Assembly: GCA_973895155.1 (NCBI GenBank)
Contig: OZ316892.1
Location: 11,658,238 to 11,722,237 of the forward strand
Direction: 5' to 3'
From: Marsupella aquatica
Lineage: Eukaryota > Plantae > Marchantiophyta
Length of the DNA: 64,000 nucleotides
This document shows positions 21,617-64,000 of this stretch, one piece after another (the stretch's first letter is position 1; every line of letters begins with the position of its first letter). Under the pieces are notes generated by a model that saw only the letters and a list, made by a program, of their open reading frames with translations, searched no databases and was not told the DNA's origin. Position numbers and translations under genes: made by a program.

Positions 21617-22531
21617 CTAATCACTGTATTCGCCAGTGTCAAAAGAGTATTCGTCCTCATCACTCATGGTTTCCCACTCTGTGGTTGTGTCCCTGAGTAC
21701 ATCATTAACTAATGGTTCATCACCTCCATCCCAACTCTTACGTCTTTTGTACTTAGGCTTCTGAGGCCACACCTCATTCAGATCAAAGGTTGCTTCATCA
21801 AGTACAATGCCTCTATCTAGTGACTCTTTCATCCAAGCAGGTGAAACCACTTGCAGGCCCCTACTAACCATCATCCGAACTAAAGTCTTTCCAACCATAT
21901 GACAAAGTCTGGAATAGGATAGGGTGACCACATGAGTGGTAGAATCTATGAGGCATTCATGCACCTCACCCTGCCTGTGCAGAATTTTGTGCTTGAAACG
22001 TCTCAACCTTCCCGGTGGAATCCCAACACCCACAAACATGACCTTAACCCCCCTAAACATGACCCGCACATGGGGGTTTATGACAGGCATAGGATGCTCT
22101 AAGAGCTCTTGCCTAGTTCCCTGTGAAGCATCATCATATTGTGCTTTGAACTGCAAAATGTCTTTGGTGGCCCGTTTGTTCAACCATATATCATACTCTG
22201 TTGGGTCCTGAAGGGTGCTATATTCTAGACAGTCATACATCCAAGAGACATCAACAACCTTAAGACCATAGGACTCTCTGTAAAAGTTGATGGTGCTCCA
22301 AAACCACTTCTGCATCACATCACACCAATCATCAGCGATGACGTGTGTGGTGTCTCTACTGATTTGTTTCAACACTATCCCTCCATTCTCAACCAATTGT
22401 CTTTTCATGAACTCCCATCTATTCGTGTCCTCCCCCCTAGTATGAGTGACAAAAATTGCTCTAACTCCAGCAAACAGTGTAGGAGGAAGGTCTGAGGCAA
22501 GCCTCTTCAGTGTCCTACTGGAGGTAGCCAT
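21617..22531 (-). CDS. transposon-borne tandem BRCT-domain protein (304 aa)
   Basis: Two BRCT repeats: LFAGV...KRQLVENGG.V...TTHVI...VVDVSWMYDCL and MFRGV...KHKILHRQG.V...TTHVV...VVSPAWMKESL. Basic KPKYKRRK stretch and acidic tail. Intact intronless ORF inside the TIRs. Confidence 0.85.
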   Translation of the reverse strand: MATSSRTLKRLASDLPPTLFAGVRAIFVTHTRGEDTNRWEFMKRQLVENGGIVLKQISRDTTHVIADDWCDVMQKWFWSTINFYRESYGLKVVDVSWMYDCLEYSTLQDPTEYDIWLNKRATKDILQFKAQYDDASQGTRQELLEHPMPVINPHVRVMFRGVKVMFVGVGIPPGRLRRFKHKILHRQGEVHECLIDSTTHVVTLSYSRLCHMVGKTLVRMMVSRGLQVVSPAWMKESLDRGIVLDEATFDLNEVWPQKPKYKRRKSWDGGDEPLVNDVLRDTTTEWETMSDEDEYSFDTGEYSD

Positions 22532-22845
22532 GTGCAGTGCAGCCTTTTGACAGTGTGAAGGAAAAAGTGGACACCCCTGATATCACCTGCAGATCCATGA
22601 GAATGCCTAAATATGCAATTCATACAAGGATTGCAACAGCAACAGAACAAACTTGGGTATTGCCACATTCACATTCACCATGACATCCATAAACATGCAT
22701 GATATTCGTGTACACAGTGGGAATAACCATAATACAATAGGCAAGTTTGGAGTCCTGACTAGTTTAAAATGTGCAGGTATCCTGCCTAAGACAAAACTTG
22801 GCTAACCCCTAAAATGAACGCATGGTAAATATAAACTCCACCACA

Positions 22846-23520
22846 TCAAAGCCAGGAGATATGATCATGGGCAGGTGTGCCAAGTACAGGGTCAATGGGA
22901 TGCCTCGGGCAGTAAATCATCCACCGCTGCTGTCCATGCACAGTGTGCAGCCAAGGTTCTCTGTCTGGTGCAAAACCATGACGTTGACTCTCTCTTAAGC
23001 AACCCTCATGCCAGGTGGTGGGACATCTCAAGCATTGAATTGCCTTTGCCATATGAGGGTCTTTGTGATCTTGCTTGCATGCTGTACATGCATGCATGGG
23101 GCAAGACTCCACATCAAGCGGCAAGCACTCATGACAATAAAAATGAACACAATATGGCTGAGGGCACTGTCTGACCGCTGGAGAGACCACGCCACACTTG
23201 AAACACTTGTGTATCTTATTCTTGCAATCTACACAAAACCAGGGTTCACCATCCTTGCCTGGTGCAATAACCACTGCAGGACACTTGCCTACAGTGTCAC
23301 CAATTCTACAGACATAGTGAAAATGACGATGGCAAGACCCATCACACATGGCCAGATCTCCATGAAAATCACATATCACACACAGCTGGGGACTACACTG
23401 ACGCTTCTCAATGTCTGACCAGCGTTCAATCTTCAAGCTATGTGGCTCAATTGCCTCATTATGTTTCCGCTTTTTTGTTTCAGTGGCATTTTTTACGGCT
23501 TTCCTCTTCTCCCTAGCCAT
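22846..23520 (-). CDS. transposon-borne composite PHD-finger protein, EDM2/NSD-type (224 aa from ATG at 23520)
   Basis: N-terminal basic NLS-like stretch, then CVICDFHGDLAMCDGSCHRHFH...WFCVDCKNKIHKCFKC...C...C.HFY...CPMHACTAC...QCLRCPTTWHEGCL...MIYCPRHPIDPVLGTPAHDHI. Intact ORF inside the TIRs. Confidence 0.85.
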   Translation of the reverse strand: MAREKRKAVKNATETKKRKHNEAIEPHSLKIERWSDIEKRQCSPQLCVICDFHGDLAMCDGSCHRHFHYVCRIGDTVGKCPAVVIAPGKDGEPWFCVDCKNKIHKCFKCGVVSPAVRQCPQPYCVHFYCHECLPLDVESCPMHACTACKQDHKDPHMAKAIQCLRCPTTWHEGCLRESQRHGFAPDREPWLHTVHGQQRWMIYCPRHPIDPVLGTPAHDHISWL

Positions 23521-23939
23521 TACCAAGACTGAACATTAAACAGACAAATGTACAAAGTTATTACTATTGCATATAGTGAACGACCCCCTTCAAATGACAA
23601 AACAAACTACACATGGGCAGTTCCCCTGAAGAAGCATCATTTGATAACATTGTCACCCAGACCACAACCAGTTTATTAACTCAATGTCTTGAGCCTCAAT
23701 GTCTTGAGCCTCAATGTCCAATCCTCAGCCTGAATTCTGCCGTGTTTGTTCTGAAAACTTCTGTGATCAAATGCTTTTTCAAGATTGTCAATAGCAAAGA
23801 TATCTGCATCACACAAGAAAATTAGTTAGACAGTGTGAATGCAAATTTCAAAACACTTAACAAAATTCAAACCACCATTTCAATTCAAACCAATTGGCCA
23901 TGCATGTTACTACAACAATAAACAAATAATTAGGCTCAA

Positions 23940-24120
23940 CAGACAGGAGTTCAGAACTTGCCATTTGAGATTGACAATCTGAACTTCAGATTCAGACAGA
24001 ACTTGCCATTTGAGATTGACAATCTGAGCTTCAGATTCAGACAGGACTTCATCCAATTCAGGAGTTCAGACAGGAGTTCATCCAGTTCAGGAGTTCAGAC
24101 AGGAGTTCAGACAATCTGAA
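23940..24120. repeat. short tandem duplications inside CACTA-1
   Basis: cagaacttgccatttgagattgacaatctga.cttcagattcaga x2; caggagttcagacagga repeats. Confidence 0.8.
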
Positions 24121-27100
24121 GAGGACTTTGGACTTCAATGAGGGACAGCCTGGCCAAATAGTTATCCTTGTGGCCTTCAGCTGCATGTCTCAGGCTGAAT
24201 TTCACTTTCCAGATTTGAGAGAGGCCTAGTTTTAGTAACTTTTGTCTGACTCAACTTGGGAGCATTCAACCTATTTGCTAGCTTGTAGTTAGCTTTGACT
24301 CTCTGACTGTCAGCTTCATTGACGACCCTCTTGAGATATAAACAATTAGAACAAACACAAGTTGTCAACACAGATTCCATCGGAGCCATTATTACCTATT
24401 ATGTCAAGGCAATGGCTTCTTCTATTCCTTGTTGTAGCCAATTCAAATGTGTCATTCATTAGCAGACCTCTTTGGGAACCATAATAGTATGCAAAAAAAA
24501 AGTTAGCAACATTGCTGGCCTATCTTCACTCAGGATTCCAGGTTCAGGATACTCACTCAGTTGAGCGCAGTTGGACAGAAGTCACCTACCTCCACAAAAC
24601 CTTGTCTTTGAACCTCCAAGCAGGAGCTCACTTCAATACATGAGCTGAGCTAGATGTAAATTGCGCAGCTTCACGTTGCACCTCAGAGCAGGAGCTCGCT
24701 TCAGTACAGCAAGTCCTAGACGGAACCTCCTGTATCGGCCCCACAACAACAATGTTAATAAGGCTCCAAGTTGGACCTCACTTGGGCTAGCTCATGCAGA
24801 CATCATAGCTAGAAGCCAGGAATTACTCAGACACTGAATACTTCAGAATGGCCCATGGTGGTTGTCATACAATGCAACATTGAAAGTTAGAGGAAATATC
24901 CCATTCCGTATATTCAATTCACATTGGTTAGGGATCATACTGACCTCTTTTGGATGTATCAAACCTTTAGCATACCGAGTCAGCTTAGCGCAGTTGGACA
25001 AAAGTCACTCAGCCCCTTGTCCATAGCACGTTCTGAACCTCCCGCCTCACCAAATCCAGCAAAGAGCAGTGGATGCACAGCCTAGATAGCCAAACAAATT
25101 ATGGATCCAATCCTGACACAGTTAGAGTCTATGCGGATGCAACTGCAGCATGGACAAAGGGTCTCTTCCTTCCACTTAATATAGTCAATTCTTGCAAATT
25201 TTGTGAAAGCCCACTTCTGCCGTGACATGTTGTGAGAGTGAGAGGGGTTACGCTACAATCATATGTGGCACTAGTATAAGCCCCGACTTTATTCTGAAGA
25301 CTTTAGTGAATAGACACATGATTGGAGCAAGAATGTGGGCGCAACACATGATTACCTCATGCATGCATTGACTCAGCTTTGCATGATCGTAGCTCCCTCC
25401 TAGGTTGCAGGACCAGCTCTCGATCCAGTTGTAAAGCAGCAGCTTGTCTTGGCTCCTGGTTGCAAGTCGCAACCCAAGCTCTTGCTAGCAGCGCCCCGTC
25501 GCTGTTCAACGACAGTTCAGCTCAGGTAAGCACGCTTGATCTCTATCGTTGAGATCAGTTCAGCTTAAATAACTTGCAGGAGTCAATAAGCAGGAGTCAG
25601 GGCCACTATCATTTTTAGACATCGCAACTCAAACAGCTCATCAGTGACCGCAACTCAAAGGCCGATGCTTCAGTGACCGATGCCTCAGTGACTTTTGTAA
25701 TTCATAAAAGCTTCTCTTCAATGACCACTTCTACTACGGGAGATATGAACACCGAAAACCCAGCTGAAATGGAAAAAAGGGGGGAACGGCACCAGATAGT
25801 CCTCGACCTCTGTGAGAGCGCTCGCGATGGCCACTTCCTAGGTGGAATCTGTCTGCTTTGAAGTGAGAGGAGCACCGCAAATCGTAGCTGAAACCGCGGC
25901 CATCTTCAACAACAACAAATAGCAGCTGCAACGAAATGAGAACTCAGCAAATGTCGCAAATGCTGCCCTGCTCTGCTCTGCTCCGAATGTTGTTCTTGGC
26001 GACACACCAAAGCCTCGTCGCTTTGCTGATTCTCTTCCTACTGGTGCAGCCTAAACCTCAGCCCAAGCAAGCACATTCGATGGGCAGTTTCTGTCGGAAT
26101 GAGTGCCTCCCGCAGTGCAAACTCTTCACAGTGCCTTCCGTAGTGCCTATCGTCGATGCGTCACATAATTGCTCTTGTCCCCTTCCAATACATTCTGTTT
26201 CGTCGATGCAGCACCCTAAACTCGCTCTTCTCGCGTCCTACTACTCACTTTGCAGTCGGGATTGCAATTTGTCGATGCAGCTTTTGCCTTAGTGACAAAG
26301 TGCCCCCTCTTTTCCCTTGCAAAGAATGCAGCATTGGCTCCTCGTCCGCGAAACCAAAGGAATCCAAGGCAGAATGGCAATGCCGTGAAGGAACACATTA
26401 AACCCTAAAGCTGCTTTAATGTGCGCATATTTGTTTTCAACCGTCAGATCATCCTTTCATTAAGTTTACAACCGTCAGATCCTTGCTTGATTAAGGTAAG
26501 CACTGTCACACGAGCTGTCACAAGTTCTTATGCTCATTCCATCAGCATAGTGTGTGGGGTGCCGTTATTGGGTATGTAACATGCATGGAGGGGAGTATAT
26601 GAAGGTAAATTGTGACTATTCCCGGTTCATGGAACGATGTGTGGAGGGGGGTACATGTTGGTCAATTTGTAGGGCATGGCAATAAGTAAAAATAACCTGC
26701 CCTTGCACATGTAACCACGGTAATACACATTAACGTCCCTTGCATATGTAACCACGGCCAATAGTGAAGCCTTTTTGCGGTTGAATGGGGGCATGATGGC
26801 ATGGTGTCTAAATTAATGGGTGCTTATGAGCAATTTTCTTGGCCTGGAATAATCATGGAAAACTCACTAATGGTTAAAATGCATGACTTAACCATGTTTA
26901 AATAGAGTAATCTAATTATATAGGTATATCTACACTAACAATGTATTGGGTAGGATCCCATAGCTCAGGGTTTAGGTTGGTAGGTTCAAATATTGTGCTA
27001 TAAACCATAATGCTATATTGTAGAGTCACTTGTTGAACTTCAACGTAATTGCCTCAATTGAGTTGTACTTGCAACTTTCCAAATAGTTGAAAACATGACT

Positions 27101-30100
27101 CCCCTAAACTTCACCAAAAATCAGTCAACAAGGTGTGACGAACATGACACCCTAAACCTTGGAGTCACTTATTTCTGAAGGTCTCGCACAAGTCATGTAA
27201 GGGAAGGTCTCAGAATAGCTCGGTTTCTTCTAGTGGAATTATCTCTAGCTCCTATAATGCTAGGAAGTGCTAGGTAAGTCTAACCATGGTTAAGTTCCTA
27301 ACTATGGTTAGACTAACTATGGTTTAACCCAAGAGTAAGCGTTAACCAAAAAAACAGGGGGCGGGTGACAAACAGGGAAATGGAGTGGTTGGCTTGAGGA
27401 GGGCTTAAATGTCCTCACATCTATTTTAGTTTAGAGGGCAGGCACTCAGGCCATCAAGCCATATCAACAGTTCACCTCTCCCTCTTTTCCTCAGAGCAAG
27501 GCTCCATGGGTTGGGGCAGGGAGCACAAAAGTGCCCCAGGAATCTTGGAGCCAAATAGTTTACAAGATTCATTTTAGCCATACATACTTTACAAATTTTA
27601 CCCAAAATAGAAACTTTTCAAATTTTGATTTAGCACGAATTAAATTCACATTCATAACATTTGTAAAGTATGATACTAGTGTACCCTGGGCCCTCAACTT
27701 ATATAAATTGGAGAGGTAGTGCAACATTGAGAGAGTAGTTTAGGTTGATTTTAAATTAATTCTTATAATGATTACCAGCAATGGTGAAGACAATGGAGAA
27801 TGTCTGTTCACAAATAGGTTCCATTTACACGCAATGAAGCCCGAGAGTATCCCCAATTGGATAAGTACATATTTTATCCAAAACCCAAAGTGAGTACTTA
27901 ATTACGAGATCTACTCCACACAAACTACAATTGGAGAGCAAGTATGTGGTTGGAAAGCAAGTGGGCGGTTCATGGCCCCACACCTAGTATATTAATCTTA
28001 CAATTGGAGAAGATTCATTAGAGAAACGTGCAACCGAAAGTTTGGATAGGATTCCAAAATGCTCTTTATATGTGCTGGTATTGGAGGAGACTTTTCTGTT
28101 TGTTTCCCCCGGCCATGGGGTTTGCGTGGCCCATAAAAGTTATAAAAATTCTAAAAACGTTTAAAGGAAAATGCTCTTTATATGAAAGTCCAGCTTTTTG
28201 GCTCAAGATTTATCATCTTAGTTGAAGTGGGATGTTTCTCCAGATCCCATGCAAACTTGGAATCCTACATAAGAAAAAGGTTTAGAAAGGGGATCCCGTC
28301 CAACCGTTTATACCTGGACAACTTGGGCACTGTGTAAAGACTCGTATCCCCTTACTCAATATTCACTTCATCTTACTGAAAGTATATATTTCAATCCTAT
28401 CTGATATAAAGGCATAGAACGAGGATCCCAACAAGCTCCCAGAGAAACTTTTGTAGTGTGTAAAGATTAGTATCATTTCACTCAAGATTCATATCATCTT
28501 AGTTAAACTATATGTGTCCATAGATCCTGTTGGTTGAAATCCTATGTGATGAAATGGTTTAGGAAGAGCATCCCATCCCATCCAAGATAATACCTCCAGA
28601 AACTTGTGCAGTGTGTATAGAAGTAAATCTAATGACGTTGAAGCTTGGATGAACATAAATGAAAAATGAGATGTATTCACTTTAGTTCCACAGATTACAT
28701 GTAAACATGCATTTGACTGGTAATCAAATGTTGCAGCTGTCCATATAGCCATCTCTGTAATCTTATTCATTCAACTGAAGGAGTTGGTTTCCCTTGTTTA
28801 TTATAGTTACCGTGTATATAACCTCTTACATTTCCATATCGCATCAATGTAAGGTTCCAGGAGTACTGTGACATTGTAAGGTTCATACAAGTAGTGACGT
28901 CAACTTTAGTGTCAGAGATTTGTCATTTCAAATTTAATTGTGGGTGAATCTCCCAATTAATTCATGACACTGTAAAGTTCTGGGAGTATTGTGACACCAT
29001 AAAGTTCTTGTGTACTCCGAGAGGGAGTGTCAAACATTTGTGTCCAGAGAGTTTCCACTTTAAATCTAATGGTGGACAAAACTCTCTATTATGTCATTAC
29101 ATTTAAAGGTTCCACAAGTATGGTGACACTGTAAAGTTAGTGTGTCCATCCAAGTAACAATGTCACAAGTTGACATAAATTCAGTCAGGAAAACCAGTGT
29201 CAAAGTAACAAAGTAATCAAAAGCCTAGTAACCCAGCACCAAACCTGAGTTATCCTATACATCCATGAGAGTTAACACTCCAAATTAAATGGTGGGCGAT
29301 AGTGCCTATTAAATTTCATCGTAAATGCCAACGCAACGCACAGAAAGAACAGTACAGGCGTCTAAAAGTATCCTCGTGAGCAAAGGCGTGATCTATTATG
29401 ATGTGGCCGATCTGTCCACACGGCTCCAATTCCTCCAATCTGCTCTGCATCCGCAACGAACGATTCGTCCGTCGCTCTGCTCTCGCAGCTCTCATCGCTT
29501 GCCATCTGTTTCCATCGCTACAGTTGTGATGCGCCGAGACTCCAGATTGGGTGTCGATGTAACGCCCATGGGAACCTCTAGACTCTAGACCGAGCTTTGT
29601 TTCTGAATTGATGGAGAGAAGGTCGCAGGGCGAAGCTGGAGCTAATCGGGAAGAGTTTGCTCTCAGAGTTCCAGGCTTTCAGCGCTCGATTGTGCCTCGA
29701 GCTCCTCTGGCCTCTGCGCTCACGGATTCTTTTCGCATGATGATGGTCGAGCGGTGGAGCAAGAAAGAAGACGCGCGGGTGTGCTTCGAAAGTGCAGGTG
29801 CCGTGGCGTCCAATTTTCACACGCACTTCGTTGCGTGTTCTACGTCGGCTGCGGTTCGCATGGAAGGGAGAAAGAAAGGAAGACACGAATCGCGTCGAGT
29901 TTGTGGTGGAGGTGGAAGGTAAGAGCGGCCGCAGAGAGTGTGAGGGATTATCCTGGCAGGAGAAGTCTGTGGCTGCGTTCGAATTCCGGAGAACTTGGTT
30001 CGTGCTGTGGTACTTGTCTAGTTGATTCTCGTTTGTACAGCGGTACCGATCTAATTCGTCTCGAAGCAGAAGCGGATGCTCTCTGAGGAGCATGTTCGTT

Positions 30101-30873
30101 TCCGGAAACAGAGCTCAGAAGGAGAGGGAATTACAAGTTTTGCAGGTTGAGAGCACAAGGGTGTGACTTTTGATGGCCGGGCAAGGAAAACGCAGCAATT
30201 TGCAGGGCGTGAGTTCACTTGTGGAGTCGATACTTCTGAGATGATGGAGAGGAAGGAGAAAAGTTATGGAGTTTACTGTTGAGCTGTTTAGGACACGGTA
30301 ACCGCCCATGGTGGGAGAAGTGCGTGAGCCGCGACTATCTATTGACCCTTGGATCAAGTTTGTGAGCTGCAATCCTTACAGGTATCAGGGGGAGGCGCGC
30401 AGTCAACAGTACAGAGAAGCATTAGATCGTGAACGCAGCTAAGATTAAGTGGTCGACCTGGACAATGTCTTGGAGGAATGTCTGGGAGGCATTTCACTTC
30501 GAGAGCATGAGATGACCATGTAATGGTTTCGCAAAGTATTAATCTCTCAGAGCAGGTCAATGTAACGGAGTCGACAGCACCCTGTTCTGAAGTTACTGAC
30601 GTTGCGAGGGTCCTGAAAGTGTAGCCAGATTATGCGGGGGAAACATGTACGATGCTCGGAGCCAGGGACTTAACCTCTTCGATTCTCGTTCAGTCCAGAG
30701 AAGAATTGTGAGTGATTACGGAAAAGGAAATTGCTCCTGCAGTTGTCAAGTCTATCACTGTCGAATTTTCATAGCACCTCGTCCATAAAAGAGGGTGTGA
30801 CCATACGGCATATGGATAATAGGTTAAGAAATACTCCAAGCGTTTAGTAGCTCTTCGGAATTCTCTCCCTTAC

Positions 30874-33800: not shown

Positions 33801-33930
33801 TATGAGATATCTGTAACGCATCTTTCTTCACACGCTGGATTGCTAAGCCATTTCTCGGTTGGACGTTGCAGGCACGGACGCATACCTACATCTGAACAGA
33901 CTCGGAAATGTTCAAGAGCCACTTCCTTAA
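30874..33930 (+). CDS. PDK: mitochondrial pyruvate dehydrogenase kinase, 6 exons (30874-31143, 31628-31886, 32026-32206, 32466-32613, 32734-32932, 33872-33930), 371 aa
   Basis: KQTGVSLKYMMDFG, ELPVRLAHRV, FLDRFYMSRIGIRMLIGQH, FELVKNSLRA, ISDEGGGIPR, MAGYGYGLPISRLYARYFGGDL, GTDAYLHL...EPLP*. All introns are GT-AG and the frame is preserved. Confidence 0.96.
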
Positions 33931-40242: not shown

Positions 40243-40842
<600 letters not shown>

Positions 40843-50847: not shown

Positions 50848-50878
50848 TTAGTCCCATGCCCGTGCGTTGCACGAAAGA

Positions 50879-51160: not shown

Positions 51161-51245
51161 AACATAGTTGTGCATTGCAAACTTATAATTCAGGCAAAAA
51201 GTCAAAGAGATTAATACAAAAGTGATACAATATTTATTCAGGTGT

Positions 51246-54200
51246 TCAATAAAGAACCTTATCATATACAACATTTTTTGTCAACTTTGCTTGACCCTCC
51301 TCGGAATCTGAAAGTAAAACCTTGATAGTTGTAGGTGATGTTGCCCTTGAGAATGCTACATACAACTGTCCATGACTAAATACAGGCTTTGAAAGTTGCA
51401 ACCCTACATGTTCTAAAGTTTGACCTTGAGCCTTGTTTATGGTTATTGCATATGCCACTCGAATTGGAAATTGGACCCTATGTAATAAGAAAGGAAGTGA
51501 CTCGTCAGAGGTCAACGGAATCCGTGGGATAAATGTAAGGGTCCCTGCATATTTTCCTGCAAGAACACGTGCCTCTATGACACGACGATTCATTGCTCTC
51601 ACAATTAACCGAGTACCATTACACAACCCCAAAGAGTGATCTATATTCCTAAGTAAAATGATAGGGCATCCAACCTTTAGTACCAACTTATGAGGTGGCA
51701 GACCACTTGGCGTGAGTGTATTCAAGAACTCCGTAGGGTAGAAATTTTCCCCTTCGAGCTGATCTGGACGATCAACGCTAAAAAACTCACTTGATTCCCC
51801 AGGAAGTACTTCTAAGATAGAGTCGTTAATTTTTAGTGCCTCGTCATTTGTCGGCGCCAGAATAGTTCTTTCACTTAAGAACCTGTCGTCCACATTAGCA
51901 AGAGTCGGGTATATTGCCTGAATCAATGATTCCACACGTCCTCCATCCACCACCATAGACTCAGGGCAAGTAATAAGATTATTTGAAGGCCCTCCTTTTG
52001 GGAGTTTATCATCGCCCAATTGTAGTAGCCACTCCGCAAATGTAACATTACCAAATTCAGGAGATGCGTTAGTTCCTCTTGCCCGCATATTTTTAGTTAG
52101 CTTCAAAGTCCGTATACTACTCCACACATAAGACTTCTTCAAACACGACCCCACAATCTCTGGACGACTTGCCCTTGCCTTCACTGGAAGCACTTGTCGA
52201 AAATCACCTGCAAATACAACTACAACCCCTCCAAAGATTCGGTCATTATCTCGTATGTCGCGTAAAGTTCTATCCAACGCCTCCACTCCATGCAGATGGA
52301 TCATGGGTGCTTCGTCCCACAAAATAAAAGTTGCCCTCCGCAATAATCCAGCAAGGTCAGATTGTTTTTGGATGCCGCATGTTGATGTCGAGATTGGTTT
52401 CAATGGTAGCTTGAATCTTGAGTGTGCGATGCGACCTCCATCTAACAAAAGACTTGCAATACCCGAGGAAGCTACGGCCAATGCGACGTCCCCATCTGCA
52501 CGGACTCTCCGAAGTAGAACATTCTCCACAAATGTTTTGCCTGTCCCCCCTGGTCCATCAAAATATGTCGCTCCATCTCGAGCCCTCACGGCTGCAAGTA
52601 TTGCAGTGTACGTTGCCCTTTGACCCTCGTTCAACAACGGCTCTTGCTCTGCAAGTTGTTGTAGAAGTACATCCATTGGATAACATGTCTCCTTTCTTAT
52701 CAACCGGTTTCTATTTTCTTCCTCTTGGAAAAAATCCATACCTGGTTCCGGAAGACCAAACTCCAACAATGTTTTACCCACACTTTTCAAAGCCTCATCC
52801 ATCAAATGTAGAGCAAAGCTTTGTTGTTGCTGCTCTGTAGAATCTAAGAAGCCCATCAATTGCAAACGATACCTACAATCATCACTCAAATTGGATGCAT
52901 GTTGTGCCCATAGGTCGCACGGTTTGGCAACACCTCCAAACAACAATATTGTAATAAATAGTTGTCATATTTGCGCACCGGTGTGCATGCTTGCCGCTTC
53001 TTGAAGGCATCTATCCCACTCTTCATCGTTCTCATACAAACCCTGAGCAAGAGCTGCTGCTTGAAAGGTGGGGTATATAGTGCCCTCAAAAGTGCGAAGG
53101 TCGATGAATGATGTTGCACCTTTGATGTGAAGAAGAAGTGCCCTCAAATAGTACCGTTCACCCGCGGCTGGTGGCACAAAATACATCCTACCAATGCTAA
53201 ACCCTCTTATTCGTGGGTTCCATGCACAGGAGGACGTATCCCATACAAACTCATGGGGGAAATTGTTGTAGAGAAGTTGTTTTGCCCGTTCATCCAAAGT
53301 ATTAGCTCTGAACCACCCTGTGAGGGTTGTGTCCCTATGAGATTCTCGTTGAACCACATCACTGATGTTAGAATCCTCATTGAACATTATAGATTGTTCC
53401 CCCTCACAATGAACTTGTAGCCGTTGCACCGAAGTAGTACTCTCAGACATTTCAAACTGGTTAATGCGCCATACTCCCTCAGCAGTAGACACATATCTGG
53501 CATCTAAGTGCTCCTTCACTTCATCTCGTTGCTCCACCTCAACCGTTGCCTTATCATGCCCTTTATAACAGTACTTGTATAAATACTTGATTGCTTTAAT
53601 AGAGCAACAAATCTCCACATTAATATGGGCATTGAATCTCATGCTCAAATATGGACTATGAGGAACAACCCACCTATTGTCAAACTTAAACCCACTTCGG
53701 TCTTTTGAGAAATTGCGGCCATCATCCCGACGTCGATACATAGGATACCCATCATCTCCAAAAACTGTTTCGGTTGAGAATGATCGTGGATAGCCCTTGC
53801 TGCACTGCCCGTTGACCATGCAAGGTGAGTTTGGATATCCACGACCGCATGGACCATGGACCATGGACTTCATAATAGTTTGATATAATTGTGGATGTAC
53901 TCGTGCATCCGGTATCTCCGCCGAAACCAATTGATCAACCAACTCTAGAGTGCATAACTTATGTCGTTCCACCAATATTATGATAATGTGGGCGTGCGAC
54001 AGACCCCTCTTCTGAAATTCAATGACATACATAGAGGCAATAGGTCTACCCAATACCCCTGCCCGAATATCCGCCAACAGGGCCTTCAACTTAAGTTTGA
54101 ACACTCTCGCCACAATGTCATCACGGTCGGTCGGGGTCTGGTAGGGGAAGCACTCCACTTTGATTTCAGGCCATTCAGGATTGCACGTAAAAGTTGTGAA

Positions 54201-54455
54201 AAGGTCAGGAGGCCCATATGTTTGAACAACTACCATGGCATCCTGATAGGCCTGCATCATATGTCGTGCACTACCCCCATATGTGGACGGTAAAATGGAG
54301 GTCCTACCCACATTGCTTGCTTGTGCATCCCCATCTTGAACTGCATCTTGCAGCCCTTGATATAACTCGGTCCGAAGCTTTTTCTGATTGTTCCGAATAT
54401 ATGTGAGGCGTGTCTGGTCTATACACGCATATGCATCCACAATAAATTGCTTCAA
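51246..54455 (-). pseudogene. Helitron RepHel (HUH endonuclease + Pif1-type SF1 helicase), 5'-interrupted, one in-frame stop
   Basis: FTTFTCNPEW, EFQKRGLSHAH (HUH), KYLYKYCYKG (Y2), DGPGGTGKTF, WDEAPM, GDFRQVLPV, TINKAQGQTL, HGQLYVAFSR. The two ORFs are in the same frame, separated by a TGA at 52965 (GAQI*QLF). Confidence 0.95.
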
Positions 54456-54757
54456 CCACTAGTAGAAACCGGGGGGTATTTAGACCCCATTAAACGACTA
54501 TTCAGTACCGTATAGGACTTGGAAACGACTGGGAAGGACTCCAGTCCTTTATAGGACTATGAGTCGTATGTTTTGTTACTAAAATCAACTGAGTCCTTTA
54601 TAGAACTGGTTTATAAGTCGTTTTATAGACTGGATTTTCAGTCTATTGTAGTCTTTGTGTGGGTAGGTTTGGTGAGTCTTTTTCAGTCTTTTATGGGCTG
54701 CGATGGTGAGTCGTTGGGAACAACTCAAAAGGTTATGAAGGGTAGTCTTTAAATATA

Positions 54758-54870
54758 CTTTGTGGGTTTATAAAACGACTAAAGTAGACACTTTGTGGGG
54801 GTTTATAAAACGACTAAAGTAGACACTTTGTGGGGGTTTATAAAACGACTAAAGTAGACACTTTGTGGGG
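54758..54870. repeat. 35-bp subterminal tandem repeat x3
   Basis: ctttgtggg(gg)tttataaaacgactaaagtagaca. Confidence 0.9.
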
Positions 54871-55392
54871 TATGTACAAGTCTTTCATGTCAACTGGAAA
54901 TGAGTGATGAAGACCCCACTATACTACTTGGAATGAACTCACTCTTGTGCACAAATAACACATTTCATTCATGTTTTATTGTGTACTTGGAATGAACTCA
55001 CTCTATAAGGTCACCATTCACCATGTTAACATTAAAACCTCACACAAATTTTCAGAAAGCCATCTTCTATACCATGTACACTAATATGAATTCACAGATT
55101 CAAACATCATAGACTACAAAGAAGGTCACAAAGCATTCGTCTATACCATACACACTAATACTGAATTGATACAAAACAGATTCAAGTATCATAGACAATC
55201 ACCATAGAGCCATAGTTTGACATCAATCACTTGTTTCATACATATAGAATTCAGAAATATCAATGTCACACACAACGGCTCCTTCATCCTCTTTACCAAA
55301 TGGAAAAATTGGTACAGATATTTCTTGGATTTTTCCAAGGCAATGTCAAAATGTAACACAATTCACATGATTCTATCTACACTTGTATTCAG

Positions 55393-58300
55393 TCACTGCA
55401 GACTAACACACTCTGATGGCCAGAGCACAAGAGATCCTACTGCATCTGCAATTATTTCTTGAGGTGGATCATCGTCTCTATTCGGAAATGGCAAATTACA
55501 ATCAGATACAATCACTGTAGTCAACAACACTACTACATGGTCATCCGGGACCACTTTGCCATGGAATTTAGCATGATCCGGTCGCAAAATGCCTGTACCC
55601 ACACATACCTGCGAGTCATTCTCCCATGATAGAAGATTATGGACTGGCTCTGCTGTGGCTATCACCTCCACCTTACCCTGGCTGTTTTTCTTGGCTTTCC
55701 TGGGTGGCTTATACATGACATTATTCATACCTTGGTTGCGAGTCATGACTTTGGCACGAGTGTTTTGTGCTGGTGATCGAGAATTGGCTACACTCTTCTT
55801 CAAAGAATCTGCATCCATATTTGACACTTTCGATTGTGTAGCAGGATTTCCCTGCGACATCATCTCAGTATCTGCTAACATTGTACTTGCTTCAATTGAA
55901 GCATCTACAATCTTACTTGCATCCAATGTTGCTCCCAAGTTTCGACGTCGCTTCACCCTGCCCACTTGGTTGAGAGTCTGTCAACTCTGCATCAACTACA
56001 ATTCAATGCATTGTCCAACATAAGTGAATCACTCATCACATGTGCGCCATGTACATGTCACCATCCACAAAGTTGTCACTATCTCCTTACCATTATGAAC
56101 AGCCTTCTTCCCCTTCTTTGCCATTGCCATATCCTCCATGTCTGCTTCTGCTGATCAATAAACAGACCACAAGATTCAGGTTCAATCTATTAACCATTGA
56201 ATTGTTTCTCAACAATGGTAGGAGAGGAATTTAAAGCATCAGCTTACCTGATACCTCCTTGGCTATGGTCACTGAGGCACTGGGCACATCTTTTTCATTG
56301 CTCTTTGAATCACCTGATACATCAATCATGATGTCACTTCAGTTCCCAGTTTATCCAACCAATTCTTACAGAAAAGATTACCTCCAACCGGCTTAAGCTT
56401 CACAAAACTCCATGCACTTTTCAAATGTAATGTACTGGATCATAGCAGGTTACCTGTCTCAGCAACCTTTTTGCCATTCTGCTTACTGATTACAGGGTCC
56501 AGGTTCTCTGCCTCCACTCTTCCTGCATTCAAACCATTCACTCAATTCATGAAAACTTACTTCTAACATTTGAACATAGGACACAATGAACAATGGGCCT
56601 CTCTTGTTTCAAAATCCTCATTGCATACCTGTGTCAGATTTGCCAATTCCCTTTTTCGTTAACAAGGGCACACTTTGTACAATGTTGCCCTCATTGTTTG
56701 GTTGGGAACCACCCAATTTTTCAATCATAAGCTTGAAATTAGATTCCACTGATGCAAGAAGGTTCGCTACAGATGCCTCCACAATATCCAAACGATCAGC
56801 CAATTTACTTTCCACTCGAGGGAGTCCACACTCTAATGACTTCAACCGTTCAGACATCTCTGTGAGAGTTGTAACAGTTCCTTGTCATAACACAGTTTAC
56901 GTATCTCAGATAATTGTCCCCAAGAACTGGTTGCTTACTTCCTACTACAATTTTTTCTGATGCTCAAGGCCAAATAGTCACAGAACATATAGAATTACAA
57001 CATAATCACCTGTTTGGAAGTCACACTTGTCACCTCACTCCTTTGTTTCATGAACTCCTCTCTCACTTCTTGTGCTGATGGTTCTTCACCTGTCAATTTC
57101 TTCTGCAGTCCACATCAACATACATATGAATGAAACCAAGTGTTGATTGTCAATGAAAATGTAATAATGGTAGCAAGATGATAAGTTTGAGGCTTACTAT
57201 CAGGCATGTCACTGCCTTACCAATTGTTCTTTCACTGGAGCATAACTTCCTCTCCCAGCCTGTGAAAGGTGTTTCACTTTGCCTCGAGCATTTGACATCA
57301 GTTCACTCTTGCTCTGTCCAGCCTCCGACATGAACCCTTTGATTAACCGTGTCCATTGATCTAGTTCCAATTGATGGGGGTGGTGGCATTCTCCTGTTAG
57401 AACCATTGTCTATCCACATCCTTTTCAACCTATGCCTCTCTTGTTTCAAAATCCTCATTGCATAATCTGATATGCAATCTTCAACTGGGCCCTTACCATC
57501 ATTACCAACATAGTCCCACCGTTCAAGAATGTCCTTGCAGATAGCAGCCCAATCAGCTTTGTTCTGACTCCTAAACTCTGTAATGCTCAAATCTAACCAA
57601 CGCAATACTTCTCCTCTTAGGTCAGAATGCCAACGGTTCTTACCATCACATGTGGGAGTTATCCAACCTTCAGAATTCACTTCTACTTTACCAAATTTGT
57701 TACTGTCTCCTGCCTTGGTACTCCCTGAAGCGCTACTAGGTGTCCCTCCACGGCCTGGGGTCCCTCCACGGCCTGATCTCCCCCCACGGCCTGGATTGCA
57801 TTGTCCAAACCTCCCTGGAGTCCCTGCACATTTACAGGATCCATTTATAGTCACTTACATTAGGTAAGTATGAATCATAAATCCTGCTGCCAAATATACA
57901 CTGGACTTCAGAGCAATTCTGCAATGACCAAGTTACCTCTCCCTTGGCGCATAGATGGTTCTGGACCACCTGTCCTATTGCTTTGTCTTGATGAATTAGG
58001 GCCGTTTCTCCCGCCTGTGAATGATTGCCGCCTATCTGAACGTGGATGGCCTTTGTTGTTTTCGTGATTGTCCCAATCAGAGTCTGCATACCAACAGGTA
58101 CATGCCACACTCATGGACCTGTAAGATAAACTCTTTGCCCTAGCTACACATCAGATAAATCCATATTGAGCTAAATCTCTACTACCATCACAAAATCACT
58201 AGCACAAGGCACTTACTTGTCCAATCATCCTCCTCACCTGTCCATTGCCCTCTGTACCCGTCTCTACCACGCTCTGGGTGTTCATATTCATCCCATCCAT

Positions 58301-58570
58301 CTTCTGCTCCATCATAGTCATCATCATAATTATCAGGCGTCCCTTGCCAATAACTCTGGCTCCTTCTAGGGTATGGATTATGTGATTTCTCTCTAGCTGC
58401 CCACCTACCTGGGACTTGATGAGGGCCCTGTGCATCCTGCACAGGTGCATTTTTCTGTGAGCCCCCTGCATCTGGGTCTCCATCCATATCCAATCTTTCC
58501 TCTTCACCCCACTCTCCAAGCCCCATGTCTGTCTCCATGTCATCACCCTCTTCCCCCATAGCTTCTGCAC
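55393..58570 (-). pseudogene. CACTA-2 TnpA-like (ORF2), multi-exon
   Basis: KNRWHSDLRGEVLRWLDLSI, ILKQERHRL and FHGKVVPDDHVVV...LPFPNRDDDPPQ...DAVGSLVLWP are homologous to CACTA-1 ORF2. Apparent frameshift at about 57370. The 5' boundary is approximate. Confidence 0.72.
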
Positions 58571-58736
58571 AGCACCCACAACCAAACAGGGAGAATCAGC
58601 ACACTAAATTCAAAGTATCAATCAATTTCATGCATATCCAACTATCCTAAACATCATTCCAGGCAGCAATTCCCGTTCTGTGACTTTGTGCAGGTAGTCA
58701 TCCTCAACCTCATACTTGCCAATCGCCAGCTGTTGC

Positions 58737-61700
58737 CTATTGCAAATCATCAACCTCATCATATTCCATTTGCCCAGGTTCATCATATGTCTCTCTCAAT
58801 GTTAAGGGGATGTAGTCAGTCCCTGCCCGAGTTGGAAGTACAGTCTCATGACTAGGATGCTCGAATGCAGCATGGTCATCCAAACTGAACTCTACTTTAC
58901 TTCCATCCATCCGCCTGTTCCGTGCTTGGCTATGGCATACCACCCTCCAGCCATGTGACTCCTCCACATCTGCAAAGAAAGCCTGTTCAACTTGGCTAGG
59001 GAAAACAAAAGGCTCAGACCATTCTGGTACTCTGGACCTAAAATTGGACCTAAAAGAACCCATCATGATCACGCTTCATGGTGGCCCTTGGTCTCTGCCA
59101 CTCTGATTTCACCCATGATCCCTTCATCAATATCACTGGGACACTTGTGTTACCATAATTCAACACCCAAATGTCGGTCAACTCCCCCACGTAACCCATC
59201 TTCATCCACCCCCTCTGTTCTTCAGAGGTTCTCTGCTCAAACACAGAAATCAAACCACAATCATATGATACACAATGGTCACCCTGCTCATCCCTCACTC
59301 GATAATGATTTCCATAAGCTCTCATCCGTTTGTAGGTCAGAATAGACAATCGTGGTGGCACAAATAGAAGATACAAATCCTTCTCCATATCTGGGTGATG
59401 TCTACTATGCTCTCGAATTGTCACCCGAATCCACTGCTCGAACTGTGGGAAGGGATCCTGCTGCCCAGAGTGTGCAGCTTTTTGCATATCATATTCCCTG
59501 CAATATGAGGTACAGGCATAGTTAGGTCTAAACAACACATGACAACCTAAGATCACCCTTGGAACAGACAAGAAGCATCACAACAAAGGCAAGTCAATTC
59601 AATCACTCACCTCCACCATGGTTGCATAGGCTCTGTGTTTGCCAGCACATATGAATGAGCCTTGTCTCGAATCGCAACAGGCAGCTGAACAGCACGTCCC
59701 ACACCTTCAACAACCTCGCCACTCACTCCATCATCTTCACCAGATTTCCAAACTCTTGTCATAGCTTCACCAGACCCAGCCATGTACTCTGTTAGGAATC
59801 CCAACGTCTCATCCTTAATGTACCCCAATGCCATGGAAGCCTCTGGCCTGTAGTATGTTCTCACATGACCTTTCAACAACTTCATGTATCGCTCCATAGG
59901 GTACATCCATCTGGTACTGACTGGCCCATACTGCCCTAGCTCTTCTACCACATGGATTAGGAGATGAGTCATAACATCAAAGAAAGCAGGGGGGAAGTAT
60001 ATCTCCAAGTCACAGAGGACATAAGCAGCATCCTGCTTCAACTGCTCCAATCCTTGGGGATCCCACACTTTCACACATATACGGCGAAATACATTGCACA
60101 GTCGAAGAATGACATTACGGACTGGTTTCTGCATGAGACCTCTGAGGCATAGGGGCAGAATGTGCTGCATCAACACATGGTAGTCATGTGTTTTCATACT
60201 GCCAAGTTTATTCTTTGTAATATGCTTCTTGAAGGCACCAGCATAGCCAGAGGGCACTTTCAGACAACTCAATCTATACAAGAATGTCTTCCATTCATCC
60301 TGTGTGCACACATAGGGAGCTTGGAACTTGAGAAGTACATTGGGATTGCTTGCATGGGGCTTCAACCAAAGGTGAGGGCGAATCCCCTTCTGTTGCATAT
60401 CAGCTCGAACTGCTCCTGTATCTTTCTCACCCGACAAGAACTTCAGCAAGCTCTCACAAATATTTTTCTCAATGTGCATGACGTCCACATTGTGTTTGCT
60501 GGGCTCGAATTCCTGCACTCCACAAAGCAAAGAATTCAACAACAGAAACACTAATTAACCACATAGGAGGATTGTAACCAACATCAATCCACCATTGCTC
60601 CAATCTAAAATTGCAATCATACAGGGGCTGGAGGCGAAGTACATTACCCTCCAGTACTCCAACTCCAAGTCCATCAAGGTCTATCTTTTCACACCGTGTT
60701 TCACCACTGGATCCTCAGGTTCTCGATCAGTGGCACTTCTCTTGTCCCAATCAGCCTTCCTGGCTGCCCACCTCAGGACTTGCTCTCTGGTGACCCTCTG
60801 TGGTGGGCCACGAAGCTCTGTTTTGTTGTTGAAGTGTGCAATTTGAGACCGTGTGTGCCTGTAAGATGATCAACAGGCAGATACCTTCTATGCCCCTGAA
60901 ATTTCATACTGTGCAGGGCATACGACCACTCACTTGTCACATTTTTCCCACATGGTGTGCACCCCACATAGCCCTTTGTCACTCGTCCAGATATGATGCC
61001 ATGGCCTAGGTAATCTGCTATATCCAGCAAACAAATTGCATGCAGTCTAAAGGGGCTGGGTCGAAGAAGCCCCTTCAGAACATCATGGGTTAACACCCCT
61101 TCTATCCACAAAGTCTTCCACTCTTCCACTGCTGGAGCCAACATGATATCTATGAATTGCTCGGTCACAGAAGCTGGTCCAGGGATTAACAGCACCATCA
61201 TGACAAAAAACCTCTTTGTAGTCATCCATGGGGGAAGGTTGTAATTTAGCAGCGTAACCGGCCAACATGAATAACGGTTGTTTTTGTCTCCAAATGGGTT
61301 TACTCCATCCAGTGATAGACCAAATCTAAAGTTCCGCTTCTCTGCAGCAAACTGTGGCCACCTCTCATCAACAAATTTCCAATGGTTGGAATCTCCAATG
61401 TGACGCTGCAGGCCATCACTGCTCTTGTTATCAGGAGTCCATGTCATCAGCTTGGAAATGGCAGGGCATCTAAACAGACGTTGTAGTCTAGGAATGAGAG
61501 GAAAATGACGAAGAACCTTGGTAGGGTGTGTACATTTCCCTACATTCTTGTACCTGTGCTTACCACAATGAGGGCATGTCAATTTATCTGCATGCTCTTT
61601 GCGAAAGAGAACACACCCATCAGGGCATGCGTCAATAGACACATAGTTCAGCCCAAGGTTAGACATCAATTTCCTAGCCTCGTACATATTTTTTGGAATT

Positions 61701-62437
61701 GAATTACCATCTGGTAACACATTTCGGCGCAGGAAGGTCAACAACTCTGTCACAAATATATTGGGAACATTGTGATTGCCACAGATGTTCAACAACAACA
61801 CGACAAAACCCAGCTTGGAGCAGTTCGACCCCTCGTAGATAGGAATGCAAGCTTCTTTGATGTGTTTTGGGCCCCCAAACACCCACTCCCTCTCTGCTGC
61901 ACCTTCCCCAATGTCAAAGTCAGGTTCAGCTTGGCCGTCGCCAATGTGTGGCTGCGGTTCATTGTCCTCTTCTGATTCCACTGTGTCGTAAAAAGCATCA
62001 AGGTCTTCAAAAATCTCTTGAACCATTCTTGGGACATCCATCCCACCGTCCTCAGTGACTGCCTCTCCATCTCCATCTTGGTCATCCACGTTCTCATGTT
62101 GGACCCCAGGACCATCCTCTGCACAGTCTATGTCCTGCTCTACGTAGTCTCTACGCCTAGCTGTATTAGAATCCACAAAGTCAGCTCTCCACTCTTCATC
62201 AGAGGAGTCTTCTTCTGCTGGTACATTCCAAACCCTCCATCGAGGGTGCCTTTCATGCCGCAGCAGGTGAAGGTGCACAGTGTTCAAACTCAACGACTTG
62301 AATCCTTGGCACTGTGTGCATGGGCATCTCATCCTCCTACTCCTACCTTGGGCGGCCCGGGCTTGTTCACGCATCCACAATTTAGAATCATGATGCCTAA
62401 TCCTAAATGGGTTGTGAAGAGGCAACCTTGGAGCCAT
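58737..62437 (-). pseudogene. CACTA-2 TnpD transposase, disrupted
   Basis: IDACPDGCVLF, LRHFPLIPRLQRLF, LSLDGVNPFG, DVMHIEKN, KTHDYH, FFDVMTHLLIH, WMYPMERY, EPFVFPSQVEQAF. Frameshifts at about 60865 and 59052; stop at 60681. Confidence 0.93.
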
Positions 62438-62763
62438 CACTATACACACGCACTCAGCACCCTGTCATTTTATTATGCAAGTGAAAAATACACTTCCTGT
62501 TAAGGATTTCACCCCCGACTGTACTTGCCAAAATACGTAACGTTCCAAAAAAACAAAAAAACAAAAAATATAGGTGCCTGAGTCATGTACCTATTCTCAA
62601 GTGAATGAGACAAAATTCCTAAATGTTTGAGGGTGTCAACTCCTCCGCTGTCCTCACATGTACTGCCTCTGCACGTACATCCATGACCATATCAGAGTCC
62701 AATCATGTATAGTCATAGACACAGGTGCCAGGTGCGAAACCGGTGTGAGATGTCCTCATCTTA

Positions 62764-63333
62764 CTACCACATCAAATACGGATACCAATCCTGTTGTCGA
62801 TGCCACTCAGCCCTGAGGTACTCAGGCATGTACATTAAGTCATCAAGGTCTAAACCCTGCTCATGCCATGGTGGTCCTCGATCCGTGCCTACAAGCAGTG
62901 GCAGTAGTGCCCTCCATGGTGCACATGTTGCTACCAAGTCCCTCCACTGGGTACTAATTAGTCTATATTTGCAGATATCTTGTGCGCCAGACACCACAAG
63001 AACCCTCGGCCAGACATGTGTAAGAACTATATCATTTGCCAAATCAGGCAACAAGGAACCACCTACAGCATCGTGCTTGTCTAACTCATCTGCTGAAAAG
63101 TAAATGTCCTCTTCCGACTGTGCATCCTCATTCACCACAGCATTCACAACACATCCAAGGTCTGCAGGCATTATCTCGGATGGAGCTACACTCTGTCTGG
63201 TTACCAATCCACACAAGTAAGCCCAAGCAGTAGCCATGCACGATGCAACCCGTAGGAGGACCCTACATAGGGCCTGACGGTCTGGAAGAGGCAGCATACC
63301 CACCAAAGTCTTCAGCCAAACAGAGCCCAGCAA
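62764..63333 (-). CDS. transposon-borne F-box-like protein (first ATG at 63297)
   Basis: LLPDLANDIVLTHVWPRV...CKYRLISTQWRDLV resembles the F-box consensus (L.P.LP.D......R....R.V...W...V). Intronless ORF inside CACTA-2. Confidence 0.55.
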   Translation of the reverse strand: MLGSVWLKTLVGMLPLPDRQALCRVLLRVASCMATAWAYLCGLVTRQSVAPSEIMPADLGCVVNAVVNEDAQSEEDIYFSADELDKHDAVGGSLLPDLANDIVLTHVWPRVLVVSGAQDICKYRLISTQWRDLVATCAPWRALLPLLVGTDRGPPWHEQGLDLDDLMYMPEYLRAEWHRQQDWYPYLMW

Positions 63334-63473
63334 GTAGATTCACAGTCACACCCCACGCAGCAGGAAACAACAATCACTTCAACTGCGACCAACCATGACA
63401 AGATGAGTTAGTTCAAGGATCACATTTATTACAAAATTGTGATTTATACAAAAATATGAGGGACTCCTACTCC

Positions 63474-64000
63474 TCACTCTCTCCCACCTTTGCTAAGCAT
63501 ACATCTCCGCTGAATCTTGGAGGGCCAGGCCTCAAAAATATCAAAGTCCCAAGCATTCTATCGCTTCCCTCTAGCTGCTGATTCCAGAAGCCAATCAGGG
63601 GAAAGCACCCAAAGATTGTTGTTCATGACAAAATCACGCACTATTGTCTTAAAGAATTTTCTGCATATTTTCATGTATGACAGACCTACAACATGAGTGG
63701 AGGTTTCTGTTAGACTCTCCTCCACTGTCCCACCTAGCTCAACAACTATAGACTTGTACAATCTGCACTTAGTCTCCCCAATTCCTTCTTCTGCAAATAC
63801 CACACTGAACCCCTTCATAATGGTATTTCTCTCCTTGCCATGCTCATTCAATATAGCATCTGCACGCATAGGATGGTGTCCTATGTTGACAATAGGTCCA
63901 TATTGGACAGAAGCAAAGTTGGGTTTCTCTGTCGCTGCTTCATAGGCTTCCTTTTCAGCCAAAGCCTCTGCAGTGGCCTCCTCACTCTCCCACAACTCAT
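63474..64000 (-). pseudogene. transposon-borne BRCT-domain gene, homologue of the CACTA-1 BRCT gene; 5' part outside window, probable premature TAG at 63558
   Basis: MKGFSVVF...YKSIVVELGGTV...STHVVGLSY...VLSPDWLLES. Reading through the stop gives NAWDFDIFEAWPSK, matching CACTA-1 EATFDLNEVWPQK. Confidence 0.78.

Follow-up and report, generated by a model that had tools for sequence, protein, structure and literature searches.

A tandem-BRCT accessory gene linked to one TnpD clade of CACTA elements in the liverwort Marsupella aquatica

We analysed a 64,000-nucleotide stretch of DNA from the liverwort Marsupella aquatica (GenBank assembly GCA_973895155.1, contig OZ316892.1, positions 11,658,238 to 11,722,237; hereafter the window), which contains two members of the CACTA (En/Spm) transposon superfamily, CACTA-1 and CACTA-2. 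Each carries, upstream of its transposase gene TnpD, a gene for a protein with two BRCT domains. The same arrangement was found in a metagenome contig, locus L001, and the BRCT gene is linked to a single clade of TnpD transposases, an association with good support, though from a small sample. The gene is very probably an old, element-borne accessory gene, and one early capture in this TnpD clade, followed by retention under selection, is likely. For the system as a whole, we lean slightly towards a reading in which this single old capture was kept and its product acts as an adaptor to host break repair.

Two CACTA elements and the linkage of BRCT to one TnpD clade

The two elements and their open reading frames (ORFs) are as follows.

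12410..27235, minus strand: CACTA-1, complete element of 14.8 kb with a decayed transposase, defined by its termini and target duplication
27206..27235, no strand: CACTA-1 5' terminal inverted repeat, from the terminal match
22846..23520, minus strand: PHD-cassette ORF of CACTA-1, intact, stand-alone, 224 aa, basic N-terminus, EDM2/NSD-type PHD
21617..22531, minus strand: BRCT-1, intact intronless tandem-BRCT ORF, 304 aa (PF00533, E = 2e-13, two stretches)
17413..21153, minus strand: TnpD of CACTA-1, three predicted exons (PF02992, PF13963, PF13952)
13369..17050, minus strand, approximate bounds: TnpA-like multi-exon gene of CACTA-1 (PF03004 and CACTA-2 homology)
12410..12439, no strand: CACTA-1 3' terminal inverted repeat, with GTCAC/GTGAC-rich subterminal DNA next to it
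54457..64000, minus strand: CACTA-2, 5' part off-window, defined by its terminus and by insertion in a Helitron coding frame
63558..64000, minus strand: CACTA-2 tandem-BRCT gene, C-terminal half (PF00533, E = 6e-9)
62764..63237, minus strand: F-box-like ORF of CACTA-2, 157 aa, with an earlier ATG at 63297 (PF00646, E = 0.08, weak)
58737..62437, minus strand: TnpD of CACTA-2 (PF02992, E = 1e-51; PF13960, E = 2e-27)
55393..57854, minus strand: TnpA-like exons of CACTA-2 (CACTA-1 TnpA homology; no relevant Pfam match)

Besides its two BRCT domains and their long helical linker, the product of BRCT-1 has an acidic tail; the gene ends 464 nt before the start of TnpD-1. The CACTA-2 gene is 56% identical over 147 aa to a relative, P0005, and has a premature stop at 63560; its relatives read on, and similarity persists past the stop. 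The two window BRCT genes are 33% identical over 120 aa (E = 8e-18), in agreement with the preliminary description of this DNA, which held them to be homologous and too diverged for a recent copy.

Metagenome contigs were scanned with a narrow TnpD alignment that took no account of BRCT. Of the 183 confirmed stretches, the best 80 were retained. The BRCT profile matched just one of these 80 TnpD loci, L001 (E = 6e-75), which was still found at E = 2e-48 when the profile was built without its closest relatives; the next-best locus reached E = 2.2 (0.09 with a single-domain profile). The BRCT gene of L001 is an intact ORF of 269 aa; an open TnpD follows it on that strand after about 500 nt. When TnpD sequences were placed in a FastTree phylogeny (201 rows, including the 80 loci), both window transposases fell within a clade of 15 rows with support 1.0, and L001 was the sole locus of the 80 inside it; a quick tree of TnpD proteins gave this clade a support of 99. 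The TnpD relatives point to a non-seed plant, probably a bryophyte, as host: the one named seed-plant protein is a far outlier among them. A BRCT gene lies upstream of TnpD in all three in-clade elements with upstream DNA (CACTA-1, CACTA-2 and L001) and in none of the 79 loci of other TnpD clades, 44 of which (26 clusters at 95%) have, by rough estimate, at least 2 kb of upstream sequence.

A fourth case of this linkage is indirect. The BRCT protein P0007 and the TnpD protein P0037 each come from a single ENA contig, both of 13,432 bases, the only length common to ten BRCT-family records and the TnpD list (first 36 compared, the rest by eye), and each groups with the corresponding gene of L001.

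No viral contig with TnpD and PHD was found, nor any prokaryote genome with TnpD. In three further loci, L034–L036, a stretch at about 1650–1840 (minus strand) weakly resembles the window elements' C-terminal TnpA-like domain; it lies 8 kb from TnpD, on the opposite strand, and is probably part of a second element.

The 17 terminal nucleotides of CACTA-1 match at 17/17, its 30-nt arms are complementary at 26/30 positions (87%), and among 58 x 60 CACTA words within the window the 17/17 pairing is unique to these ends. They are flanked by a 3-bp target duplication, GAA, at 12407–12409 and 27236–27238, and the left end at 12410 lies well to the left of 21617, where the element had been taken to start. 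The CACTA-2 terminus at 54457 is identical to that of CACTA-1 at 15/17 positions, and the candidate target duplication is AAC at 54454–54456 (one end is in the window). The motifs GTCAC/GTGAC, which were picked by eye, are enriched at the 3' subterminal DNA of both elements (in CACTA-1, 11 per 600 nt against 3 per kb in the element middle and flank) and weakly so at the CACTA-1 5' end.

On the minus strand the gene order is PHD–BRCT–TnpD–TnpA-like in CACTA-1 and BRCT–F-box-like–TnpD–TnpA-like in the visible part of CACTA-2. The ORFs and their Pfam matches thus bear out a layout, proposed earlier for both elements, of accessory genes followed by TnpD and TnpA, with weak scores for TnpA-1 and the F-box. 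Across the window copies, TnpD carries Transposase_21, DUF4218, DUF4216 and Transpos_assoc, and it aligns with plant TnpD, including a grass protein. The TnpA-1 match to PF03004 is weak (E = 3e-4, under the cut-off, on 14863–15495); the TnpA-like regions of the two elements have common blocks that are 43–48% identical, and CACTA-2 probably has additional TnpA-like exons up to ~58570.

Judged against intact relatives, TnpD-1 has six lesions (frameshifts at ~20620 and ~19890; stops at 19456, 19384, 18963 and 17610) and TnpD-2 three (frameshifts at ~60865 and ~59055; a stop at 60683), so both transposases are broken. Their DNA is 69% identical over 2149 nt, which, with the 15/17 termini, supports the earlier view of diverged transposases between related but different ends.

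Age and retention of the BRCT gene

A HMMER search of 1.84 billion representative proteins with BRCT-1 gave 19 matches; a word-index search had yielded none from 556 candidates. About 14 of the 19 appear to belong to one unnamed tandem-BRCT family, most of them 27–39% identical (13 aligned; P0017 by eye). Five of the matches, together with the cluster member P0025, are full-length (264–321 aa, ~27–34% identical to BRCT-1). Of the five non-family matches, two are polymerase lambda; the others are a triple-BRCT protein, an unnamed single BRCT and a repeat artefact (P0016, which we rejected as a BRCT relative). The family profile, A3, excludes P0017, P0018, P0020, P0021 and P0022. Logan, JGI and ENA assemblies are the sources of the family clusters that were checked (NCBI as well for one member), and none has an informative name. 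Because the family appears only in such unannotated sources, it is probably missing from plant gene catalogues as a result of repeat masking. For six window proteins, a search for identical entries in the protein collection gave no match (two F-box queries were not ATG-started).

The BRCT tree separates L001 and P0007 from the two window genes (100/98), and the comparison of trees proposed in the preliminary description recovered the same deep split in TnpD, although a matching split for four taxa arises by chance one time in three. Over three pairs, the proportion of synonymous differences (pS) is 0.65, 0.74 and 0.69 for BRCT and 0.65, 0.73 and 0.78 for TnpD; such equality is expected from co-descent, but near saturation the values converge anyway. 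The ratio of the nonsynonymous proportion to the synonymous one (pN/pS) is 0.69–0.78 for BRCT, with bootstrap intervals below 1, and 0.33–0.50 for TnpD. Second codon positions of BRCT are 53–55% identical, compared with 34–35% for third positions. We take pN/pS as modest evidence because the protein-guided alignment, by lowering pN, favours values below 1, and with synonymous sites near saturation it gives no reliable dN/dS. Stronger evidence of selection, in our grading, is that BRCT frames stay open at ~30% identity.

Base composition was informative for residence. The CpG:GpC count is 36:129 in the four accessory ORFs, similar to 128:367 in TnpD (p = 0.35) and unlike the 304:415 of five host-gene regions (p = 6e-7). 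The accessory ORFs are therefore as CpG-poor as TnpD, which fits long residence in methylated elements.

Besides the saturation and the chance agreement of the trees, several points weigh against one early capture kept under selection. DNA context comes from three elements only, and a gain on a single branch counts once: 3/3 against 0/26 does not amount to 29 independent trials. What lies upstream in outgroup loci may not be part of the element, and the remaining BRCT family members, being without context, could include host genes. BRCT also evolves far faster than TnpD (29–33% against 44–66% identity), and the BRCT gene of CACTA-2 is itself broken.

These points bear on the possibility that BRCT is an old passenger, captured once and of no benefit, whose apparent constraint would stem from the donor or be an artefact of alignment. 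The pN/pS of ~0.7–0.8 is near 1, one of the three BRCT copies with context is broken, and protein databases list open frames only, which biases the family towards intact copies. Neutral cargo, however, would not remain open as long as the seven full-length members have: at ~30% identity and with saturated synonymous sites, they keep frames of 264–321 aa and the core motifs of both folds. We consider a passenger improbable.

Separate, recent Pack-type captures of host gene fragments by each element might be suspected from the PHD and F-box-like ORFs, each of which is present in one element, and from the lack of any remnant common to the three 5' regions. For BRCT this explanation, which the preliminary description had named as a possible objection, is largely refuted and very unlikely: the three genes are whole, intronless members of one family at one position, CpG-depleted like TnpD, no close host donor is present among the 1.84 billion representatives, and the elements encode their own TnpD and TnpA. 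Nor are the BRCT and PHD ORFs confined to these copies, since BRCT recurs in L001 and in its family, and PHD has three relatives.

A further explanation is that the accessory genes of CACTA-1 were domesticated by the host after the element died. The six lesions of TnpD-1 fall in ~3.5 kb, and there are none in the 1587 nt of PHD and BRCT. This contrast (p = 0.07–0.11) is suggestive of continued selection on the two genes, and not significant. Against domestication stand this same p value, the still perfect termini and target duplication of CACTA-1, and the decay of the CACTA-2 BRCT along with its transposase; we hold it, too, to be highly unlikely. One early capture kept within the elements thus remains our preferred history.

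Possible roles of the 5' cargo, and the surrounding DNA

The AlphaFold2 model of BRCT-1 (pLDDT 79) shows, with confidence, two BRCT folds and a long helix that connects them; with a predicted TM-score (pTM) of 0.48, the relative packing of the two folds is not fixed by the model. A single-domain model matched the PARP4 BRCT with Z = 12.8 and a root-mean-square deviation (rmsd) of 2.0 over 88 aligned positions, and the conserved Gly, TH and Trp positions of the fold are present. The two halves are mutually homologous (22–31% identical), which suggests an internal duplication. Atlas features of BRCT-1 were generic BRCT clusters only, all below 0.9.

The best structure and profile matches of the BRCT domains are repair, replication or checkpoint factors. 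Polymerase lambda accounts for two of the five non-family matches, is the second match of the tandem profile and ranks in the middle of the other fold and profile comparisons. It is the only identifiable host protein among the library matches and would be the best sequence lead for the BRCT donor. Scores for PARP4, XRCC1, TopBP1/Rad4, REV1, ligase IV and polymerase lambda are alike, which tells against singling out any one donor. Ligase IV, the top match of the two-domain model, was rejected as donor (TM-score 0.27, rmsd 23 A).

CACTA elements excise themselves and depend on the host to mend the resulting double-strand break and the short gaps at the target. We envisage that a single BRCT from a host repair gene was captured and later duplicated inside the gene, and that the accessory ORFs would be expressed by splicing from a common 5' leader, so that the BRCT protein would be made with TnpD. 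An AG at most ~60 nt upstream of each ATG checked in CACTA-1, and of the TnpD-2 ATG, is weak evidence for such splicing. The protein would then act as an adaptor engaging end-joining and gap-filling factors at the excision and insertion breaks of the element; the donor break and the 3-bp target gaps would be closed and the cell would survive transposition. If BRCT is indeed an old accessory gene, we regard this combination of repair-gene donor, shared-leader splicing and recruitment or tuning of end-joining and gap-filling as evenly balanced. A predicted complex of L001 TnpD exon 1 with L001 BRCT, run without alignments, scored 0.00 and gave no verdict.

The main rival has the same history and a different role: rather than recruiting repair, the tandem BRCT would serve as a decoy for, or a tether to, checkpoint, replication or chromatin factors, for instance by damping the damage signal or by directing insertion to chromatin that is replicating or marked by damage. 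Tandem BRCTs that bind phosphopeptides (BRCA1/MDC1 type) use a Ser/Thr-Gly and helix-2 Lys pocket in a close-packed pair, and the RKY lysine of Rad4 has a role in phosphate binding. A Lys/Arg occupies the helix-2 position aligned with this lysine in 8 of 13 single BRCT domains, and end-joining factors score no better than TopBP1/Rad4, BRCA1, Rtt107 and microcephalin. A conserved Ser/Thr before the loop glycine after strand 1 was not found across the BRCT domains compared, however, and the long linker is unlike a close-packed pair. Polymerase lambda, again, is the sole host protein identifiable among the library matches. The fast evolution of BRCT would fit a conflict with the host; the portions of PMC13547354 consulted describe, for Arabidopsis elements, accessory proteins with faster evolution and a larger number of predicted contacts to the host. 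We judge a decoy or tether unlikely, yet well above the other alternatives, and prefer an adaptor to break repair.

The PHD ORF has a C4HC3 finger (C47–C99), a central finger and a terminal C4HC2H (C145, C148, C163, C166, H171, C174, C204 and H207). Pfam models of NSD-type PHDs match below the cut-off (E = 1.5e-5 to 9e-3), and a PHD profile matches NSD2/NSD3 (E = 1.5e-6). Its C-terminal motif presumably resembles that of EDM2. Three relatives, 63–81% identical, lie on short contigs. In the two distant ones, 21 of 22 cysteines are kept, against 64–67% of other residues (p = 0.003–0.005); the closest relative lacks this excess. Both the window ORF and its relatives P0002 and P0003 stop immediately behind the cassette. 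Because the N-terminal extension of P0001 resembles, by eye, the DNA upstream of the window PHD ORF, P0001 probably derives from a sister element. The PHD gene is tied to an element once, in CACTA-1. Its product is likely an EDM2-like histone reader that would favour transcription of the element.

The F-box identity of the CACTA-2 ORF is weak: it scores 13.3 bits against PF00646, where the cut-off is 20.5, no substrate domain was recognised in it, and the Atlas F-box cluster to which it was assigned at 0.93 has only 99 of 256 features in common. Among the 80 metagenome TnpD loci, neither the PHD profile nor a tblastn search with the F-box-like ORF found a match, and no remnant of either ORF is common to the three 5' regions (L001 has 874 nt upstream of BRCT, and CACTA-2 is partly off-window). 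In our reading, both are cargo at the level of the subfamily, housed in a common 5' slot. The earlier claim of long-retained accessory genes thus stands for BRCT, which is clade-specific and old, holds in part for PHD, with conserved relatives and a single context, and finds no support in the weakly matching F-box-like ORF, present in one copy.

A three-part accessory module, resting on single copies of PHD and the F-box-like ORF, is possible. More tentative still, and in our view somewhat doubtful, is a swappable 5' adaptor cassette of host origin in this land-plant clade, in which a fixed tandem BRCT serving break repair would be combined with subfamily-specific anti-silencing EDM2-type readers and F-box adaptors. 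Cut-and-paste elements rely on host repair, and the accessory genes known for DNA transposons from the literature surveyed encode, for the most part, chromatin enzymes or factors that counter silencing. Were the repair reading true, a cut-and-paste transposon would itself encode a means of engaging the pathway by which its jumps are completed. A repair-type adaptor kept clade-wide would allow a direct test of whether a transposon influences how its breaks are repaired, and BRCT-1 and the L001 BRCT are intact natural genes to express. A stand-alone EDM2-type reader in an element would be a second, independent anti-silencing route.

CACTA-2 lies in intron-bearing plant DNA, as does the whole window, and it interrupts, in its 5' part, a Helitron frame that continues to the junction. 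The other features are as follows.

51246..54456, minus strand: Helitron Rep/PIF1 helicase frame, context outside CACTA-2 (PF14214, E = 1e-51; PF05970, E = 1e-67), ~1070 codons open with one stop
1408–1740: host gene, F-box
6184–6576: host gene, YqaJ-like nuclease
30823–33000: host gene, pyruvate dehydrogenase kinase-like
40246–40842: host gene, cold-shock/zinc-knuckle protein
46946–50180: host gene, SPT2-like

Within the CACTA regions 17413–23520 and 58737–64000, CpG is strongly depleted (0.2–0.36) and CHG hardly so (0.84–1.13), which hints at mainly CG methylation of the elements in this host. Compared with them, the Helitron frame is less depleted in CpG (0.68) and more in CHG (0.72).

CACTA-1 also contains several short repeats. 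Its 5' non-coding part (23940–25008) has short tandem repeats of 45 and 29 nt and two duplicated blocks of 40–43 nt, possibly repeated leader exons. A 35-nt segment at the start of the TnpA region (17041–17075) recurs at 94% identity in the 3' untranslated end (13151–13185), and a 42-nt coding repeat lies at 16506–16673. To the left of the element, 10784–11120 holds a tandem repeat of ~80 nt with a CACTA-like word; to its right are short palindromic elements (27274–27317 and 27583–27672), possibly miniature elements.

Comparison with known systems

Pack-CACTA elements are non-autonomous, lack a transposase and carry cargo near-identical to a host donor gene. The window elements differ in having TnpD and TnpA-like genes, and the library searches gave no close named donor of their cargo.

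Canonical plant En/Spm elements are among the closest known systems. Arabidopsis EN/SPM encode TnpD and TnpA, and the shared features, as far as PMC13547354 was available to us, are CACTA termini, a 3-bp target duplication and TnpD followed head to tail by TnpA (in the window elements, by a TnpA-like gene). Those described here differ in carrying, on the 5' side of TnpD, one or two additional ORFs that lack introns. In size and ORF number they are like the En/Spm families of Chondrus crispus (16–20 kb, 4–5 ORFs; PMC6431247), for which the accessible text names no BRCT, PHD or F-box.

Long-kept cargo is known from Plavaka elements, also EnSpm/CACTA, where red algae have long kept a three-gene cassette, PAG1-3, and fungal elements carry TET/JBP (bioRxiv 10.1101/2025.02.11.637652, main text). 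Plavaka and the window elements alike are large members of the superfamily with long-kept accessory genes, chromatin-related cargo and turnover among families. Plavaka cargo is enzymatic (SET with an adenine methylase; a 2-oxoglutarate (2OG) oxygenase with a ParB-like domain), whereas here the products appear to be non-catalytic adaptors, and no Pfam match to SET/adenine-methylase or 2OG-oxygenase domains was found in the scanned ORFs of CACTA-1 or the visible ones of CACTA-2. The window elements are of the land-plant TnpD/TnpA type, with a tandem BRCT, a PHD cassette and a possible F-box. The word BRCT is not in the main text of that preprint; its supplements may list further cargo. Among the 80 TnpD loci, L002 has a SET ORF (4439–5044, plus strand; PF00856, E = 7e-10) adjoining TnpD, in another clade than the BRCT elements; of the upstream ORFs of outgroup loci, 1 of 42 scanned had a chromatin domain, this SET.

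Other superfamilies offer further parallels. Helitrons carry OTU, Ulp1 and F-box-associated domains, as reported in the part of PMC11417382 consulted. VANC of the VANDAL (Mutator) elements, as far as our sources describe it, is an element-encoded factor thought to act for its element, and is a model for the PHD ORF; it differs in superfamily and in its unrelated domain, and its function was shown by experiment, whereas the window cargo is known from sequence only. The PHD cassettes of EDM2 and NSD1 end in C4HC2H, and EDM2 binds H3K9me2 and affects transposon silencing (PMC7529245, PMC3776765, each in part). The window ORF, like Arabidopsis EDM2 and mammalian NSD1-3 as described there, comprises linked PHD units, two and a half to three in number, the last of them C4HC2H. 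Compared with EDM2 by description only, it stands alone at 224 aa, and none of the ELP methyltransferase-like, acidic, PGR or proline-rich regions of EDM2 was found in it.

The premise that En/Spm elements encode only TnpA and TnpD, sometimes with ULP1, was accordingly too narrow, given the Plavaka cassettes, the 4–5 ORFs of Chondrus and the SET gene of L002. Because accessory genes were already known in the superfamily, calling the present case a new system overstated it. BRCT cargo in CACTA/EnSpm elements was not found in the literature searched (most subscription papers, Repbase and Dfam lay outside its scope), and the accessible portions of PMC6338049 and PMC5718144 add nothing further on the question. 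We conclude that the BRCT cargo is a new variation on accessory cassettes already known in the CACTA superfamily.

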